Of a stretch of 64,000 bases of DNA, positions 53,171 to 58,609 are shown in pieces (position 1 is the first letter of the stretch; each line of letters opens with the position of its first letter). The stretch covers positions 4,805 through 68,804 of the forward strand of contig PTKZ01000006.1 in NCBI GenBank assembly GCA_002938205.1, given 5' to 3'. The notes beneath the pieces were generated by a model. That model did no database searches and was not told the origin of the DNA. It was given only the letters and a program-made list of their open reading frames with translations. Source of the DNA: Alphaproteobacteria bacterium MarineAlpha5_Bin5. Its GTDB lineage: Bacteria > Pseudomonadota > Alphaproteobacteria > HIMB59 > GCA-002718135. The translations under genes and the position numbers were made by a program.

Positions 53171-54175
53171 ATGCTTGTTTTTGCAGTAGAAACTTCATGT
53201 GATGAAACATCAGTATGCATTATGAAGGACGATAAGACGATTTTGAGTCACATAATCTATTCTCAAGAAATTCACAAAAAACATGGAGGGGTAGTGCCTG
53301 AGCTAGCATCAAGGGCTCACTTAGAAATACTTCAAAACATAACAAAACAAGCATTTAAGAAAACTAAAATTAACCCAGGTGATATAGATATTTATGCTGC
53401 TACTTGTGGTCCTGGATTAATAGGTGCATTGTTAGTTGGTTCTACATTTACTAAAGCATTATCGATAGGCGCAAAAAAACCCTTTGTGCCAATAAATCAT
53501 TTAGAAGGACATTTATTTTCTCCAACATTTAATAACAAAATTTTATTTCCCCATCTTTCGCTTCTTATAACAGGTGGACATACGCAAATTTATTTGATTA
53601 ACAATAAACAAAAAATAACACTCTTGGGAGAAAGTATAGACGATGCAGTTGGAGAAGCCTTTGATAAGGTTGCAAAACTTCTCGGTTTATCATATCCAGG
53701 AGGTCAAGAAATTGAAAAAAAAGCTAAAAAAGGAGATGAAAATTTTTTTAAATTGCCACAACCTTTAATAAGTGAAGATAATTCTAACTTTTCCTTTTCT
53801 GGATTAAAAACATCAGTAAATTTAATTATTAAAAAAAATAAAATTAATTACAATTTTATTAACAATATGTCCGCATCGTTTCAAAAATGCATTGCAGATA
53901 TTCTGTCTGTAAAATTAGACAAAACAATTAAAAAATTAATTCAAGATAAAAAAAACTTATCATCCGTTTCTGTAGTTGGTGGTGTTGCCAATAATAATTA
54001 CATCAAATCCAAAATACTATCTATTACAAAAAAACATAATCTTAAATTAGTTATTCCTCCAAGAAAAATGTTATGTGACAATGCAGCGATGATTGCTTGG
54101 ACTTGTATTTATAAATATAGTAAGGGTGATGCAAATATATTTGTTGAACCTAATCCTAGGTTAACGATAAATTAA
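53171..54175 (+). CDS. tsaD: tRNA N6-adenosine threonylcarbamoyltransferase
   Basis: AVETSCDETS, the HLEGH metal site, ITGGHTQ and GGVANN are present. Confidence 0.93.
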   Translation: MLVFAVETSCDETSVCIMKDDKTILSHIIYSQEIHKKHGGVVPELASRAHLEILQNITKQAFKKTKINPGDIDIYAATCGPGLIGALLVGSTFTKALSIGAKKPFVPINHLEGHLFSPTFNNKILFPHLSLLITGGHTQIYLINNKQKITLLGESIDDAVGEAFDKVAKLLGLSYPGGQEIEKKAKKGDENFFKLPQPLISEDNSNFSFSGLKTSVNLIIKKNKINYNFINNMSASFQKCIADILSVKLDKTIKKLIQDKKNLSSVSVVGGVANNNYIKSKILSITKKHNLKLVIPPRKMLCDNAAMIAWTCIYKYSKGDANIFVEPNPRLTIN

Positions 54176-54179
54176 CAAT

Positions 54180-54599
54180 ATGAAAATAAATTACTGGTTA
54201 ATGAAATCTGAACCTTCTACTTGGTCATGGAATAATCAAGTAAAAGATAAAATAACAATGTGGGATGGGGTCAGAAACTATCAAGCTAGAAATAATTTAA
54301 TGAAAATGAAACAAAAAGATTTATGTTTCTTTTATCATTCTGTCACTGAAAAATCTATTGTGGGCGTCGTTGAAGTAATAAAAGAACATTATCCAGATCC
54401 AACTGATAAAACTGGAAGGTTTGTCGTAGTGGATGTCAAAACTAAATATAAATTTAAGAATCCGGTAAATCTTGAGCAAATTAAAAATAATCCAAAATTA
54501 TCTGATATCCCTCTTATAAAACAAAGTAGATTATCTGTGATGCCAATTAGAATCTCAGAATGGAATGCAATTATTAAAATATCTGAGAAACAACGGTGA
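54180..54599 (+). CDS. EVE (PUA-like) domain protein
   Basis: YWLMKSEPSTWSW, WDGVRNYQARNNL, CFFYHS and IVGVVEV are present, and the length is 139 aa. Confidence 0.8.
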   Translation: MKINYWLMKSEPSTWSWNNQVKDKITMWDGVRNYQARNNLMKMKQKDLCFFYHSVTEKSIVGVVEVIKEHYPDPTDKTGRFVVVDVKTKYKFKNPVNLEQIKNNPKLSDIPLIKQSRLSVMPIRISEWNAIIKISEKQR

Positions 54600-55456
54600 C
54601 AACAAAAATTTTATGGATTGCTTCTTATCCTAAAAGTGGCAATACTTGGATAAGATCAATTATATCTTCATTATTTTATACAAAAAAAGGCGACTTTAAT
54701 TTTAACTTATTGAATTTAATTGAATTGTTTGAGCAAAAGAAAAATTTTAATTTTGTTAATAATATTAATCAAGAAGATTACAAAAATTTGCATAAAATAG
54801 AAATTATATCAAAATATTGGTTAGAGGCTCAAAATTCTATAATTAATCAAAGACATTCAATAAATCCTATTTACAATGTCTTCAAAACTCATAATGCCAA
54901 TCTATTCGTCAATTCAAACATTTTTACTAAATCTGATTATACTGCAGGAATCATTTATTTAGTTAGAGATCCTCGTGAAATTGCTATTTCTTATTCGAAA
55001 CATATGGGGAAAGGCATAGACCAAACAATAGACATCATGCTTAATGAAAAAACTACTTTAAAACCTCCAAACGATTTTCCGACATCTATAATTTCAACAT
55101 GGGAACTACATTATAAAAGCTGGAAAAAAACCAATGCTCCAAAATTAATATTAAAATATGAAGACATGATAGAGAATACAAAAGAAACAATCGAAAGAAT
55201 TATAGTATTTTTATGCATCATTTTTCAAATAAAAAAAGACAGTTTTGAAAAAAAAATAAATAATATTATAAACTCTACCAATATTAATAAATTTAGGCAG
55301 CATGAATTAAAATTTGGTTTTGCTGAATCATCAAATAAATCTTATTTCTTTGGTAATGCAAAAAGAGATAGTTGGAAAAAAATACTTTCAAAAAAACAGG
55401 TCAAAAAAATTGAGGATAAATTTTATAACACAATGCGAGAAATTGGATATATATAA
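54596..55456 (+). CDS. PAPS-type sulfotransferase domain protein (paralogue 1)
   Basis: A GTG start forms a GTGA overlap with the EVE stop. The 5'-PSB motif is YPKSGNTW and the 3'-PB motif is YLVRDPREIAIS. Confidence 0.75.
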   Translation: MTTKILWIASYPKSGNTWIRSIISSLFYTKKGDFNFNLLNLIELFEQKKNFNFVNNINQEDYKNLHKIEIISKYWLEAQNSIINQRHSINPIYNVFKTHNANLFVNSNIFTKSDYTAGIIYLVRDPREIAISYSKHMGKGIDQTIDIMLNEKTTLKPPNDFPTSIISTWELHYKSWKKTNAPKLILKYEDMIENTKETIERIIVFLCIIFQIKKDSFEKKINNIINSTNINKFRQHELKFGFAESSNKSYFFGNAKRDSWKKILSKKQVKKIEDKFYNTMREIGYI

Positions 55457-55594
55457 TTGTAAATTTTTTATTGATATTTGCTTCAATTGTGATTAAATTT
55501 TAAATTATGGTAACAAAAAAAGCTGGATTAATAATTCAAAAGTTAATTTTGATGAATATATAAAAATGTATAATTAATCAATTGGTAACAATAG

Positions 55595-55765
55595 CGATTT
55601 GTTGATGTTAAGGCTAAAACTAAAATGAAAAAACCAATTAACCTTGAACAAATTAAAAACAACCACAAATTAAGCAAACTTGCCTTTATAAAACAAAGAA
55701 AGTTATTTGTAATGCCAATTTTAAAAAAAGAGTGGAATGAAATTATAAAAATTTCCGAAAATTAA
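55595..55765 (+). pseudogene. remnant of a second EVE-domain gene (C-terminal ~55 codons only)
   Basis: My own translation gives RFVDVKAKTKMKKPINLEQIKNNHKLSKLAFIKQRKLFVMPILKKEWNEIIKISEN. The intact copy reads RFVVVDVKTKYKFKNPVNLEQIKNNPKLSDIPLIKQSRLSVMPIRISEWNAIIKISEKQR. A stop lies immediately upstream at 55592. Confidence 0.8.
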
Positions 55766-55767
55766 TA

Positions 55768-56658
55768 ATGAGTAAACATATTTTCTGGCTTTCATCTTAC
55801 CCAAAAAGTGGAAATACACTTTTAAGAGCAATATTAGTTTCATTATTTTTTAATGATGAAGGCAAGTTTAGTTTTGATTTGTTAAAAAATATTTCCCAGC
55901 TTGAGCAAATAGAGCGATTAAGTTTAATAAAAAAAAACTATAAACATGATTTTGATAAAATTAATAATTTAGAAATATTATCAAAATATTTGTTAAAATT
56001 ACAAACTAAAAAAAATCTTGGATTTAGTGAAGATTTTGCTTTTTTTAAAACACATTTTGCTAACTCTATAATAAATAACAAACCATTTACTAAAGAAGAG
56101 AATATCAGAGGAATTGTTTATTTGTTAAGAGATCCAAGAGATGTTTGTGTTTCTTGGGCGAGACATTCAAATTTATCAATTGAAGATAGTGTTAATTTTC
56201 TAACGAATGAAAATGCTTGTGTGTCATGGGGAGGTAATACAAATTTATTCAAGCCTATAGTTCCAAAAGTTTTATTATCAAGTTGGGATAATCATATAAA
56301 TTCATGGACACTTAAACAATGGAATGTTCCTATATTAATAATAAAATATGAAGATTTAATTCATGATAAAAAAGAAACTTTAAATAAACTTGTATTTTTT
56401 TTTCACAAATACTACAAAATTAAAATTCAAAATATTAATGAAAAAATAAAAAATATAATGAAAACAACCACGTTTAATTCAATGAAAAAAGCAGAACAAA
56501 ATTCAGGGTTTGGGGAGGCAGTTAATGGTCCTTTTTTTGCAGTAGGTAGAAATAATCAATGGAAAGAAAAATTAACAAAAAATCAGATTATTTTTTTAGA
56601 AAATAAATTTAAGACTATTATGAAAAAATATAATTATAAATTAACCGTTGATATTTAG
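55768..56658 (+). CDS. PAPS-type sulfotransferase domain protein (paralogue 2)
   Basis: YPKSGNTL (5'-PSB) and YLLRDPRDVCVS (3'-PB) are present. The protein is collinear with paralogue 1. Confidence 0.75.
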   Translation: MSKHIFWLSSYPKSGNTLLRAILVSLFFNDEGKFSFDLLKNISQLEQIERLSLIKKNYKHDFDKINNLEILSKYLLKLQTKKNLGFSEDFAFFKTHFANSIINNKPFTKEENIRGIVYLLRDPRDVCVSWARHSNLSIEDSVNFLTNENACVSWGGNTNLFKPIVPKVLLSSWDNHINSWTLKQWNVPILIIKYEDLIHDKKETLNKLVFFFHKYYKIKIQNINEKIKNIMKTTTFNSMKKAEQNSGFGEAVNGPFFAVGRNNQWKEKLTKNQIIFLENKFKTIMKKYNYKLTVDI

Positions 56659-56686
56659 TTAATTTGCAAGTAAATTTTTTATTACA

Positions 56687-58609
56687 ATGGAAATTGATAA
56701 AGAATGGATAAATCAAGCAAAGGTTAATTCAGATAAATATGATCAAATGTATACTAAATCAATTGATCAAAATGAAGAATTTTGGGCAAAAGAAGGTAGA
56801 AGAGTTAATTGGATAAAAGATTATACAAAAATTAAAGAAGTTAAATATTCAAAAAGTAATGTTAATATAAAGTGGTTTTATGACGGTACTTTAAATGTTG
56901 CTTATAACTGTATTGACAGACATGCAAAAGTTAACCCGGAGCGCATTGCAATTATTTGGGAAGGAGATGATCCTAATAACGTAAAAAAAATCACATACAA
57001 AGAATTATTAGACAATGTTTCAAAAACTGCAAATGTCTTAAAAAAAATTGGTGTTAAAAAAGGTGATAGAGTAACGATATACTTAACTATGATACCTGAG
57101 CTTGCATATGTAATGTTGGCGTGTGCAAGAATTGGTGCTGTTCATTCTATTATTTTTGGAGGTTTTTCAGCTGATTCAATTTCAGGCAGAATATTAGATT
57201 GTAAATCAGAATTTCTAATTACAGCTGATGAAGGAGTTCGTGGAGGTAAAACAATACCACTAAAAAATATTGCAGATAAAGCGCTTGAAAAATGCCAAAA
57301 TGTAAAAAAATGCTTAATAGTAAAACGAACTGGGTGTGATGTTGCTATAAAAAAAGATAGGGATGTTTTTTTAGATGATGTGATTAACCAAGTTGATGAT
57401 GTTTGTGAGCCTATTGAAATGTCGGCAGAAGATCCGCTTTTTATACTTTACACATCAGGCTCTACAGGCAAGCCAAAAGGGGTTCTTCATACTTCAGGTG
57501 GCTATCTTGTCTATGCTTCTATGACACATGAATATATTTTTAATTATAACAAAGAAGATATATATTGGTGTACCGCAGATATTGGTTGGATAACAGGACA
57601 CAGTTACATAATTTATGGACCGCTATGTAATGGCGCTACTACATTGATGTTTGAAGGTGTTCCAAACTATCCTGATTTTTCAAGATTTTGGCAAATCATA
57701 GATAAGCACAAAGTAAATATTTTTTATACAGCTCCGACTGCAATCAGGGCTTTAATGCGTGAAGGTAACGATCATGTAAAAACAACAAATAGATCTTCTC
57801 TGAAGTTAATGGGAACAGTTGGTGAACCTATTAATCCTGAAGCATGGAAATGGTATTTTGAGATTCCAGGTAATTCTAGATGCCCTATTGTTGATACGTG
57901 GTGGCAAACTGAAACAGGTGGTATTTTAATTTCTCCTCAAACCGGGGCGATTAAACTAAAACCTGGTTCAGCTACTAAACCATTTTATGGAATTGAACCA
58001 TGTATAGTGGATAAAAAAGGAAAAGAACTTATGGGAGAGTGTGAGGGTATGCTCTGTATGAAAAGATCTTGGCCTGGCCAAATGAGAACTGTCTATGGAG
58101 ATCATAAAAGATTTATTGAAACTTATTTTTCACAATTTGATGGTAAATATTTTACTGGAGATGGTTGCCGTAGAGATGCTGATGGTTATTACTGGATAAC
58201 AGGTCGTGTTGATGATGTTATAATTGTCTCAGGTCATAATTTAGGAACGGCAGAAATTGAAAGTGCCTTTGTTGAACATTCGAAAGTATCTGAAGCTGCA
58301 GTTGTTGGATATCCTCATGATATTAAGGGAAATGGATTGTATTGCTATGTATCATTAAATACAGGTGAAGAAGCTTCAGATGAATTAAATAGGGAATTAA
58401 AACAATTAGTACGTGAAAAAATCGGACCCATTGCTACGCCTGATATAATTCATTTTACTTCAGGATTGCCAAAAACGAGATCTGGAAAAATAATGAGACG
58501 TATATTAAGAAAAATTGCAGCTAATGAACATGATCAGCTTGGTGATACATCTACTTTAGCTGATCCTGGAGTTGTTAATAATCTAGTAGAAAATAGAATG
58601 AATAAATAG
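56687..58609 (+). CDS. acs: acetyl-CoA synthetase
   Basis: [19 protein letters not shown] and TRSGKIMRR are present, and the length is 640 aa. Confidence 0.95.

Follow-up and report, generated by a model that had tools for sequence, protein, structure and literature searches.

How did a streamlined marine alphaproteobacterium come to carry, in the short interval between two core genes, two distantly related sulfotransferases and, wedged between them, the tail of the gene that precedes them both? This arrangement is found in a 64,000-nucleotide stretch of DNA from Alphaproteobacteria bacterium MarineAlpha5_Bin5 (assembly GCA_002938205.1, contig PTKZ01000006.1, positions 4,805 to 68,804), hereafter the window, to whose first letter all positions refer unless a contig or locus is named. 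There, a gene for an EVE-domain protein is followed by genes for two 3'-phosphoadenosine 5'-phosphosulfate (PAPS)-type sulfotransferases, ST1 and ST2, and then by acs, the gene for acetyl-CoA synthetase. We find that the interval is built from two head-to-tail units, each of which holds the end of EVE, one sulfotransferase gene and the start of acs. Most probably, two old versions of the same chromosomal slot were stacked here, an imported EVE-ST1-acs beside a resident EVE-ST2-acs, by way of an illegitimate join between acs and EVE.

Two units joined end to start

EVE (54180..54599, on the + strand like every gene and gene remnant from tsaD to acs) is an intact, single-copy core gene that encodes 139 residues. 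Its product matches PF01878 over profile positions 1-144 of 145 (158.6 bits against a cut-off of 23, E 1.3e-46), that is, over the full length of the domain. ST1 (54596..55456, 286 residues; PF00685 E 1.2e-21) starts at a GTG and overlaps the end of EVE by four nucleotides, GTGA, and a spacer of 311 bp separates it from ST2 (55768..56658, 296 residues; PF00685 E 1.8e-24). The initial annotation had described this layout, and every element of it was found in its place. It had also taken the last part of the spacer for a copy of the EVE C terminus, about two-thirds identical to the intact gene. Alignment of the two pieces bears this out: the remnant (55595-55765, 171 nucleotides) matches EVE residues 84-136 at 36 of 53 positions (68% amino acid identity, E 8e-22), the nucleotide sequences are 71-74% identical with no indels, and the remnant alone matches PF01878 (36.1 bits, E 8e-9), at profile positions 95-144 only. 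The similarity is thus significant. Likewise present are the stop codon before the remnant, an in-frame ATG at 55625 that opens a 46-residue reading frame, and the ST2 start two nucleotides past the stop of the remnant.

The observation was real but incomplete, as the spacer also contains a decayed copy of the start of acs that had been missed. Positions 55494-55592 correspond to a decayed ST2-acs intergenic leader together with acs codons 1-29 and match 56671-56773, with a local score of 62 versus 24 +/- 3.7 for shuffled sequences (z = 10.4), the best match in the whole window; the same stub was found independently as a repeat family (D3, 75% identity). The decayed acs codons 1 to ~29 (55507..55594, which we call ψacs) have suffered a 1-nucleotide deletion near the start and contain an in-frame stop. 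They are preceded by an ST1-linked copy of the ST-acs intergenic leader (55457..55506; repeat family D4, 55444-55507 versus 56621-56684, 72% identity). They are followed directly by the EVE 3' end, ψEVE (55595..55765, EVE residues ~84-137), which retains an open frame. ψacs and ψEVE are pseudogene scars, and where they adjoin inside the spacer they form a novel junction (55590..55600, with no strand assigned) at which acs codon ~29-33 is fused to EVE codon ~80-84. The junction was placed by the ends of the alignments and its position is good to 55590-55600 only; a TTT microhomology is possible there and is not significant at about 25% G+C.

The whole structure (54429..56773) hence consists of two collinear units of ~1.18 kb, A (54429-55594) and B (55595-56773), in which the EVE 3' end, a sulfotransferase gene, an intergenic stretch and the acs 5' end follow each other twice, head-to-tail. 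The repeat search returned this as four collinear families, D2 (54429/55601), D1 (55124/56314), D4 (55444/56621) and D3 (55524/56705), whose copies are spaced by 1172-1190 nucleotides.

A second EVE gene that was once complete and later decayed, one of the two readings offered in the initial annotation, is ruled out. Compared with the 5' 250 nucleotides of EVE, the spacer scored 19, below the shuffle mean of 21.3, and no similarity appeared in its first 138 nucleotides. A sharp breakpoint near codon 80-84 thus marks where the EVE copy begins, with no residual homology to the EVE 5' part, and the repeated unit never held a full EVE. The genome contains one full EVE gene and the remnant fragment.

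The differences between the remnant and the intact tail are concentrated at third codon positions (identity of 79/84/50% at codon positions 1/2/3; Fisher p = 5.5e-5), which argues that the remnant diverged mostly inside a functional gene, in another lineage and under purifying selection. The two EVE tails would thus have grown apart for the most part as pieces of two working genes, each in a lineage of its own. Three of the remnant's substitutions fall in KQSRLSVMP, a motif that is invariant in every EVE compared from the genus of this organism (g1) and of which one of the three sister-family copies has a one-residue variant; these changes point to relaxed constraint after the functional phase. 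The retention of an open frame does not separate the two stubs, since zero disruptions in the 171 nucleotides of ψEVE versus two in the 88 nucleotides of ψacs is not a significant difference (p ~0.12 by hand calculation).

Some further features of the stubs and of EVE itself deserve mention. The ATG at 55625 corresponds to the methionine of KYKMKKP in the EVE proteins of the sister species G081 and of locus L087 and is thus ancestral, not newly evolved. With the ATG of ST2 two nucleotides past the remnant stop, the 46-residue frame is a candidate for termination-reinitiation coupling to ST2. A promoter-like TTGATA-N17-TAAATT stands both 5' of ψacs (55471-55499) and 5' of the real acs (56648-56676). 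These are consensus matches only, and as a scan for promoters and terminators gave counts at shuffle expectation, the duplicated element is a hint only; the copied acs promoter may drive transcription through both stubs into ST2. As to the start of the intact EVE, public metagenome gene calls use the second ATG at 54201 (132 residues); the relatives' M(K/S/N)xNYWL(L/M)KSEP supports the ATG at 54180 (139 residues).

Could the structure be a product of the assembly? The same layout, including the 46-residue frame and exact ST1 and ST2, is seen on no fewer than 10 independent contigs from marine metagenomes (Tara, JGI, NCBI) at an identity of at least 99.77%. The layout recurs in L085, a 98.8% variant, where the spacer has changed faster than the genes (2.6% versus 0.4-1.9%). 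We rule out an assembly artefact, because misassembly could not create the decayed stubs or the acs/EVE junction, and both recur across independent assemblies, different assemblers and a diverged strain. The arrangement is fixed in natural populations. A test for selection on the remnant frame across the 10 contigs was uninformative, as the spacer shows zero variation among them (at least 99.77% identical). The frame is open in L085 too, and ψEVE there differs from that of the window by only five substitutions (3/0/2 at codon positions 1/2/3), a small number that is compatible with neutrality.

A variable slot and two clades of sulfotransferases

The two genes that left stubs in the spacer are the fixed boundaries of a slot. 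On the left, EVE follows its conserved upstream partner, the core gene tsaD (53171..54175; PF00814 E 3e-82), which lies directly 5' of EVE in all relatives examined. On the right, the core gene acs (56687..58609; PF16177, PF00501, PF13193) lies 3' of EVE or of the sulfotransferase genes in all relatives. The wider backbone is conserved as well, with a hemY-like gene and orf302 running leftward away from tsaD, the series from tsaD through EVE to acs running rightward, and tdk running leftward beyond acs. Every locus examined that spans the slot (~45) has the order tsaD, EVE, zero to two sulfotransferase genes, acs, tdk, and the occupants are only of the PF00685 type. Among the 26 g1 species representatives, the slot contains no sulfotransferase gene in 15, one in 7, two in 3 and at least one in a single truncated locus, and all three loci examined from the sister family (f2) lack one. 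Counted over genomes, a sulfotransferase gene lies directly 3' of EVE in 29 of 83 from the genus (~35%), five of these 29 having two.

The occupants are much more diverged than their surroundings: slot sulfotransferases are 34-75% identical and form several deep clades at ~35-55%, versus 69-80% for EVE and 77-86% for acs. The EVE-acs gap is a conserved variable slot, in which zero, one or two genes of one sulfotransferase family are found in deeply diverged versions. Of 104 other genus genomes, 83 have a single copy of EVE and none contains a second EVE fragment. The spacing between EVE and the sulfotransferase gene ranges among relatives from an 8-nucleotide overlap to 70 nucleotides. The gap between tsaD and EVE is 4 nucleotides here and ~38-50 nucleotides in most genus relatives. 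The tsaD/EVE junction is variable in content too. In G021 (L039, 820-1476) an extra gene of 218 residues lies between tsaD and EVE, and in L083 (3-434) an opposite-strand S-adenosylmethionine-dependent methyltransferase-like gene, absent from the present genome, lies directly 5' of EVE, with no tsaD within the available 468 nucleotides.

Both sulfotransferases of the window score well above the PF00685 cut-off of 22 bits (77.7 bits for ST1 and 87 for ST2). By inspection of the ST1/ST2 alignment, guided by the structures of cytosolic sulfotransferases (SULTs), we assigned in both what we take to be the 5'-phosphosulfate loop (YPKSGNT), the catalytic histidine (KTH), the 3'-phosphate motif (RDPR(E/D)xxxS) and the C-terminal G..WK. 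The two proteins share 35% of their amino acids and the genes 59% of their nucleotides, and a phylogeny places them in different clades. ST1 groups with P0003, P0005, P0006, P0010, P0004 and P0016 (100/99 support), with P0020 outside, and its closest homologues are metagenomic (52-67% identity). The four members of this clade whose context was looked up (P0003, P0005, P0006 and P0010) are each the sole sulfotransferase of a tsaD-EVE-ST-acs slot (L079-L084), and a 48%-identical ST1 homologue from a 'MarineAlpha5' metagenome-assembled genome likewise occupies the slot. ST2 is sister to P0123 (99/97 support, 74% identity), the sole slot gene in L087, and is orthologous to the sole sulfotransferase of the sister species G081 (75% amino acid identity). 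Judged by this phylogeny, ST1 and ST2 are members of separate, well-supported deep clades and not recent duplicates.

These relationships bear on the simplest account of the repeat, a tandem duplication of the 1.18-kb segment in place, after which the sulfotransferases would have diverged to an extreme degree or one copy would have been replaced. The anatomy is what this account predicts, because two collinear head-to-tail units and a novel junction that joins the acs 5' end to the EVE 3' end are the exact product of an unequal crossover, and the remnant's best protein match is the EVE tail of its own genome (68%). The distribution of differences within the units speaks against it. The non-functional stubs retain 71-78% nucleotide identity to their functional counterparts, whereas the functional sulfotransferases in the middle of the unit retain only 59% (35% at the protein level); third-codon-position identity is 50% in both the ST1/ST2 and the remnant/intact-tail comparisons. 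Each sulfotransferase also has closer single-gene orthologues in other lineages, ψacs and acs point to different lineages (p = 0.0009; see below), and the third-position bias of the remnant is not expected from neutral decay since a duplication. We consider duplication in situ very unlikely. The version of it raised in the initial annotation, in which a whole EVE-sulfotransferase operon was duplicated and the second EVE then decayed, fails in addition because the unit contains no whole EVE.

Flank affinities and the probable direction of import

If not by duplication, from where did the two units come? The acs pieces at their right ends show opposite lineage affinities. ψacs aligns best with the acs 5' ends of the ST1-type loci L083 (score 75) and L079 (71), and scores 62 against the acs of its own genome, 60 against L087 and at most 43 against ~38 other loci scanned. 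The intact acs 5' end, by contrast, scores 117 against the ST2-type locus L087 and at most 55 against ST1-type loci. At diagnostic flank sites, ST1-type states stand to ST2-type states as 17:7 in ψacs and as 7:22 in the intact acs (Fisher p = 0.0009).

The backbone and ST2 share a nearest relative. G081 (locus L093) is far closer than any other species, with identities of 80% for tsaD, 86% for acs, 86% for tdk and 57% for orf302; the other relatives reach at most 68% for tsaD, at most 83% for acs, mostly 75-83% for tdk (89% over one partial match) and at most 42% for orf302. G081 carries a single, ST2-type sulfotransferase gene, with the same 2-nucleotide gap from the EVE stop to its start as is seen before ST2 here, and L087 belongs to the G081 lineage. 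ST2 is 78% identical to its G081 counterpart at the nucleotide level, which equals the divergence of the backbone, as for vertical descent. Third-position identity to G081 is 62% for tsaD, 66% for ST2, 58% for acs and 61% for the remnant; for the remnant, the corresponding value is 50% against the intact EVE tail and 52% against L083. As G081 carries the ST2-type gene alone, import of the ST1 block and its illegitimate joining are the probable course of events. Vertical inheritance seems to account for the ST2 block and the remnant, and an outside origin for the ST1 block and ψacs, so that ST2 would be the native occupant of the slot and ψEVE is probably the displaced native EVE end. The case for this direction depends on a single sister species and on identities at the third positions of 54 codons.

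In the history that we favor, the lineage would first have carried tsaD-EVE-ST2-acs, as G081 still does. DNA would then have arrived from a related lineage with the alternative version EVE-ST1-acs. The left side of the incoming DNA would have recombined in or upstream of EVE, and its right end, at acs codon ~29-33, would have been fused by an illegitimate event to codon ~80-84 of the resident EVE. The product would be the order observed: intact EVE, ST1, the acs 5' stub, the displaced EVE 3' stub, ST2 and intact acs. Homology-facilitated illegitimate recombination is one possible route; a Campbell-type insertion of a circular molecule made of the EVE 3' end, ST1 and the acs 5' end would be its equivalent.

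Homology-facilitated illegitimate recombination combines one homologous anchor with one illegitimate join and is known from natural transformation in Acinetobacter and Streptococcus. The present locus would share with it the addition of DNA beside a homologous anchor, the joining of unrelated sequences and the duplication of part of the anchor. It differs in that the process is read here from the scar, and in that the incoming DNA would be allelic to the resident locus rather than foreign and unrelated. The term itself appears in PMC2884548.

The initial annotation had come near to part of this history when it considered a cassette that entered the 3' end of EVE and brought a replacement end with it. 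Its logic for the EVE side holds, as the remnant is probably the displaced native end, and islands targeted to tRNA genes, which regenerate the 3' end of their target, similarly leave a displaced 3'-end copy of the gene at the insertion point. The further analogy to such integrating cassettes does not hold, because the 5' end of the neighboring acs is also duplicated, no recombinase is found and the 'cassette' is an alternative version of the same chromosomal slot. Unlike in those islands, there is no integrase and no tRNA here, and the insert is homologous to the resident locus throughout; the partial duplication of both flanking genes together with the lack of a recombinase open reading frame sets the locus apart from site-specific cassettes in general. 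No integrase or transposase open reading frames are present in 50.9-60.3 kb, no meaningful inverted repeats were found at the locus, and EVE, ST1 and ST2 did not match any PADLOC defence model at E <= 0.01. On these negative results, we reject a mobile element or a defence system as the explanation.

Several points weigh against the import of ST1 into an ST2-bearing resident. The 17:7 preference of ψacs is modest when taken alone (p = 0.064). The diagnostic sites on the EVE side go in the predicted direction, 15:20 in the remnant and 19:14 in the intact tail, and are not significant (p = 0.33). The intact EVE is not clearly donor-like, with 39 L083-like versus 30 G081-like sites (p = 0.34), and the left breakpoint was not located, as neither sliding identity nor diagnostic sites across tsaD and EVE show a clear switch. 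The closest protein match of the remnant is the intact EVE tail of its own genome, at 68% versus 64% for L087. No donor was found that is closer than 67% in sulfotransferase identity, and L083 and L079 are related to the donor without being the donor itself. Finally, homologous recombination at ~75-80% flank identity is inefficient.

Because the structure is symmetric, the opposite direction would yield the same product. In that case EVE-ST1-acs would be native and a segment with the EVE 3' end, ST2 and acs would have come from a G081-like donor, with the illegitimate join on the left and a crossover inside acs. Two features of the left flank agree with this: the intact EVE is marginally closer to the ST1-type L083 (81% of nucleotides) than to G081 (78%), and the 4-nucleotide spacing between tsaD and EVE is like that of the ST1-type loci L080 and L082 and unlike that of most genus relatives. 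Against it stands the whole backbone, in which orf302, tsaD, full-length acs and tdk are all nearest to G081, a species with the ST2 type only, and the divergence of ST2 from G081 (78% of nucleotides, 66% at third positions) equals that of the backbone; moreover, an extra replacement event would be required. We regard this reversal as unlikely, and ST1 as probably the imported enzyme.

Function of the sulfotransferases and likeness to known slots

EVE domains are generally regarded as readers of modified nucleic-acid bases, and the initial annotation had pointed to the repeated translational coupling of EVE to sulfotransferases as a pairing that it did not recognise as a described system. In a functional reading, EVE and the sulfotransferases would form a translationally coupled module, with the sulfotransferases acting on a nucleoside or nucleic acid whose modification EVE reads, and selection would keep the pairing. 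The adjacency is by no means unique to this genome: co-oriented sulfotransferase genes directly 3' of EVE are found in the 29 genus genomes counted above and in other Pelagibacterales lineages, often with spacings of 0-8 nucleotides or overlaps. Yet EVE stands beside tsaD and acs without any sulfotransferase gene in 15 of the 26 g1 species and in the three f2 loci, that is, it is simply the conserved neighbor of tsaD in relatives that lack sulfotransferases there, and four of the six sulfotransferases of this genome, which has a single EVE, lie elsewhere. Overlaps and tiny spacers are the genome-wide norm (median gap ~6 nucleotides, 25th percentile -4), so the GTGA overlap is ordinary packing. 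The nearest solved homologues are small-molecule sulfotransferases (TEG12, StaL and cytosolic SULTs), and the survey of EVE neighborhoods reports no sulfotransferase (PMC7641849). What appeared in the search as an EVE-sulfotransferase fusion in G022, a 437-residue open frame, is ruled out, as the sequence AAA TAG ATG holds a stop followed by the sulfotransferase start. A selected module of this kind is extremely improbable, and we have dropped the idea of a new EVE-sulfotransferase system as unsupported. The data fit best with EVE as a bystander whose functional partner is tsaD and whose adjacency to the sulfotransferases is positional.

We give hardly more credence to a variant in which the sulfotransferases would act on a nucleoside or tRNA-linked substrate of the TsaD (N6-threonylcarbamoyladenosine, t6A) pathway and EVE would read the product. 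Slot diversity would then reflect a diversification of nucleic-acid modification, and the 46-codon stub would be kept as a leader for the translational coupling of ST2.

The neighborhood on the tsaD side resembles a described one. In alphaproteobacteria, a TsaD->GpsA->YciI->EVE operon lies divergent from hemC-hemD-HemX-like-hemY (PMC7641849; Bell, Wolf and Koonin 2020). The present locus likewise has tsaD directly 5' of EVE on the same strand and, divergently oriented, orf302 (HemX-like) and a hemY-like gene (PF07219, weak). It differs as a reduced form, in which GpsA and YciI are absent from the 4 nucleotides between tsaD and EVE, and in having sulfotransferases, which are not in the described neighborhood.

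What, then, might the sulfotransferases do? With PAPS-dependent Sulfotransfer_1 enzymes they share a PF00685 match above threshold, the PAPS loops and the catalytic histidine; the similarity to the nearest solved structures (TEG12, Teg14, StaL and cytosolic SULTs) is distant (E ~1e-8). In published accounts of the hypervariable regions of SAR11, sulfotransferases are named among the genes for surface polysaccharides, and on that basis envelope modification would be the most plausible role. By gaining ST1, the cell would have acquired a second sulfotransferase with a different acceptor specificity.

As to the supply of the sulfate donor, no CysN-CysC fusion and no Sat was found in this 92%-complete assembly; 44 of 105 genus genomes have a CysN-CysC fusion of ~640 residues and two have a stand-alone CysC. 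Outside the window, at C1:101036-107609, lie genes for a CysQ-like 3'(2'),5'-bisphosphate nucleotidase (PF00459, 1e-52), aprA, aprB and aprM, and in the same cluster a 164-residue P-loop protein with a weak match to adenosine 5'-phosphosulfate (APS) kinase (PF01583, 30.9 bits versus a cut-off of 21.1) and a small nucleotidyltransferase-like gene. A possible route to PAPS would thus lead from sulfite through AprBA to APS and on through the small kinase. This assembly has six PF00685 sulfotransferases; besides ST1 and ST2, PF00685 matches lie at C52:71948-72820 (- strand), C52:69630-70331, C52:874-1449 and C12:4363-5175. The first of these, a member of the same family, lies ~4 kb past the end of the window. 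A second same-family sulfotransferase gene ~9-15 kb from EVE is present in many genus genomes (G003, G061, G068, G069, G076, G078, G095, G097, G110, G113 and G120), and this site looks like a further place in the neighborhood where sulfotransferase genes reside.

Among known arrangements, the locus fits best with the flexible genomic islets or 'metaparalog' slots that are described between fixed core genes of Pelagibacterales (PMC11796062, Molina-Pardines et al. 2025; 10.64898/2026.10.07.757358, Martin-Cuadrado et al. 2026, preprint). As in those slots, EVE and acs are fixed flanking core genes, and the slot contains divergent members of one family (35-75% identity) between much more conserved flanks or, in some genomes, nothing; integrases and transposases are absent, and the diversity is older than the species. 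The preprint notes that mobile-element genes are absent and that how metaparalog variants become established 'remains unresolved' (10.64898/2026.10.07.757358). The present slot differs in that two versions are stacked and in that their join keeps pseudogene stubs of both flanking core genes. It thereby preserves a physical recombination scar, evidence that those papers say they lack; they do not mention sulfotransferases at the EVE-acs slot. We therefore regard the locus as a Pelagibacterales metaparalog slot with a rare, two-sided preserved scar, which is new to the described slots.

Small variable slots are numerous in SAR11 genomes, and at each of them the same core genes enclose now one, now another divergent member of a single family. 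The scar described here records a case in which recombination brought in the alternative version of a slot as a whole, along with parts of its flanking core genes, and placed it beside the resident version instead of exchanging the two. It also supplies a search pattern for similar events, the 5' stub of a downstream core gene fused to the 3' stub of an upstream one. The locus is thus a concrete, datable case of core-gene-anchored recombination building paralogue content in a streamlined SAR11-type genome.

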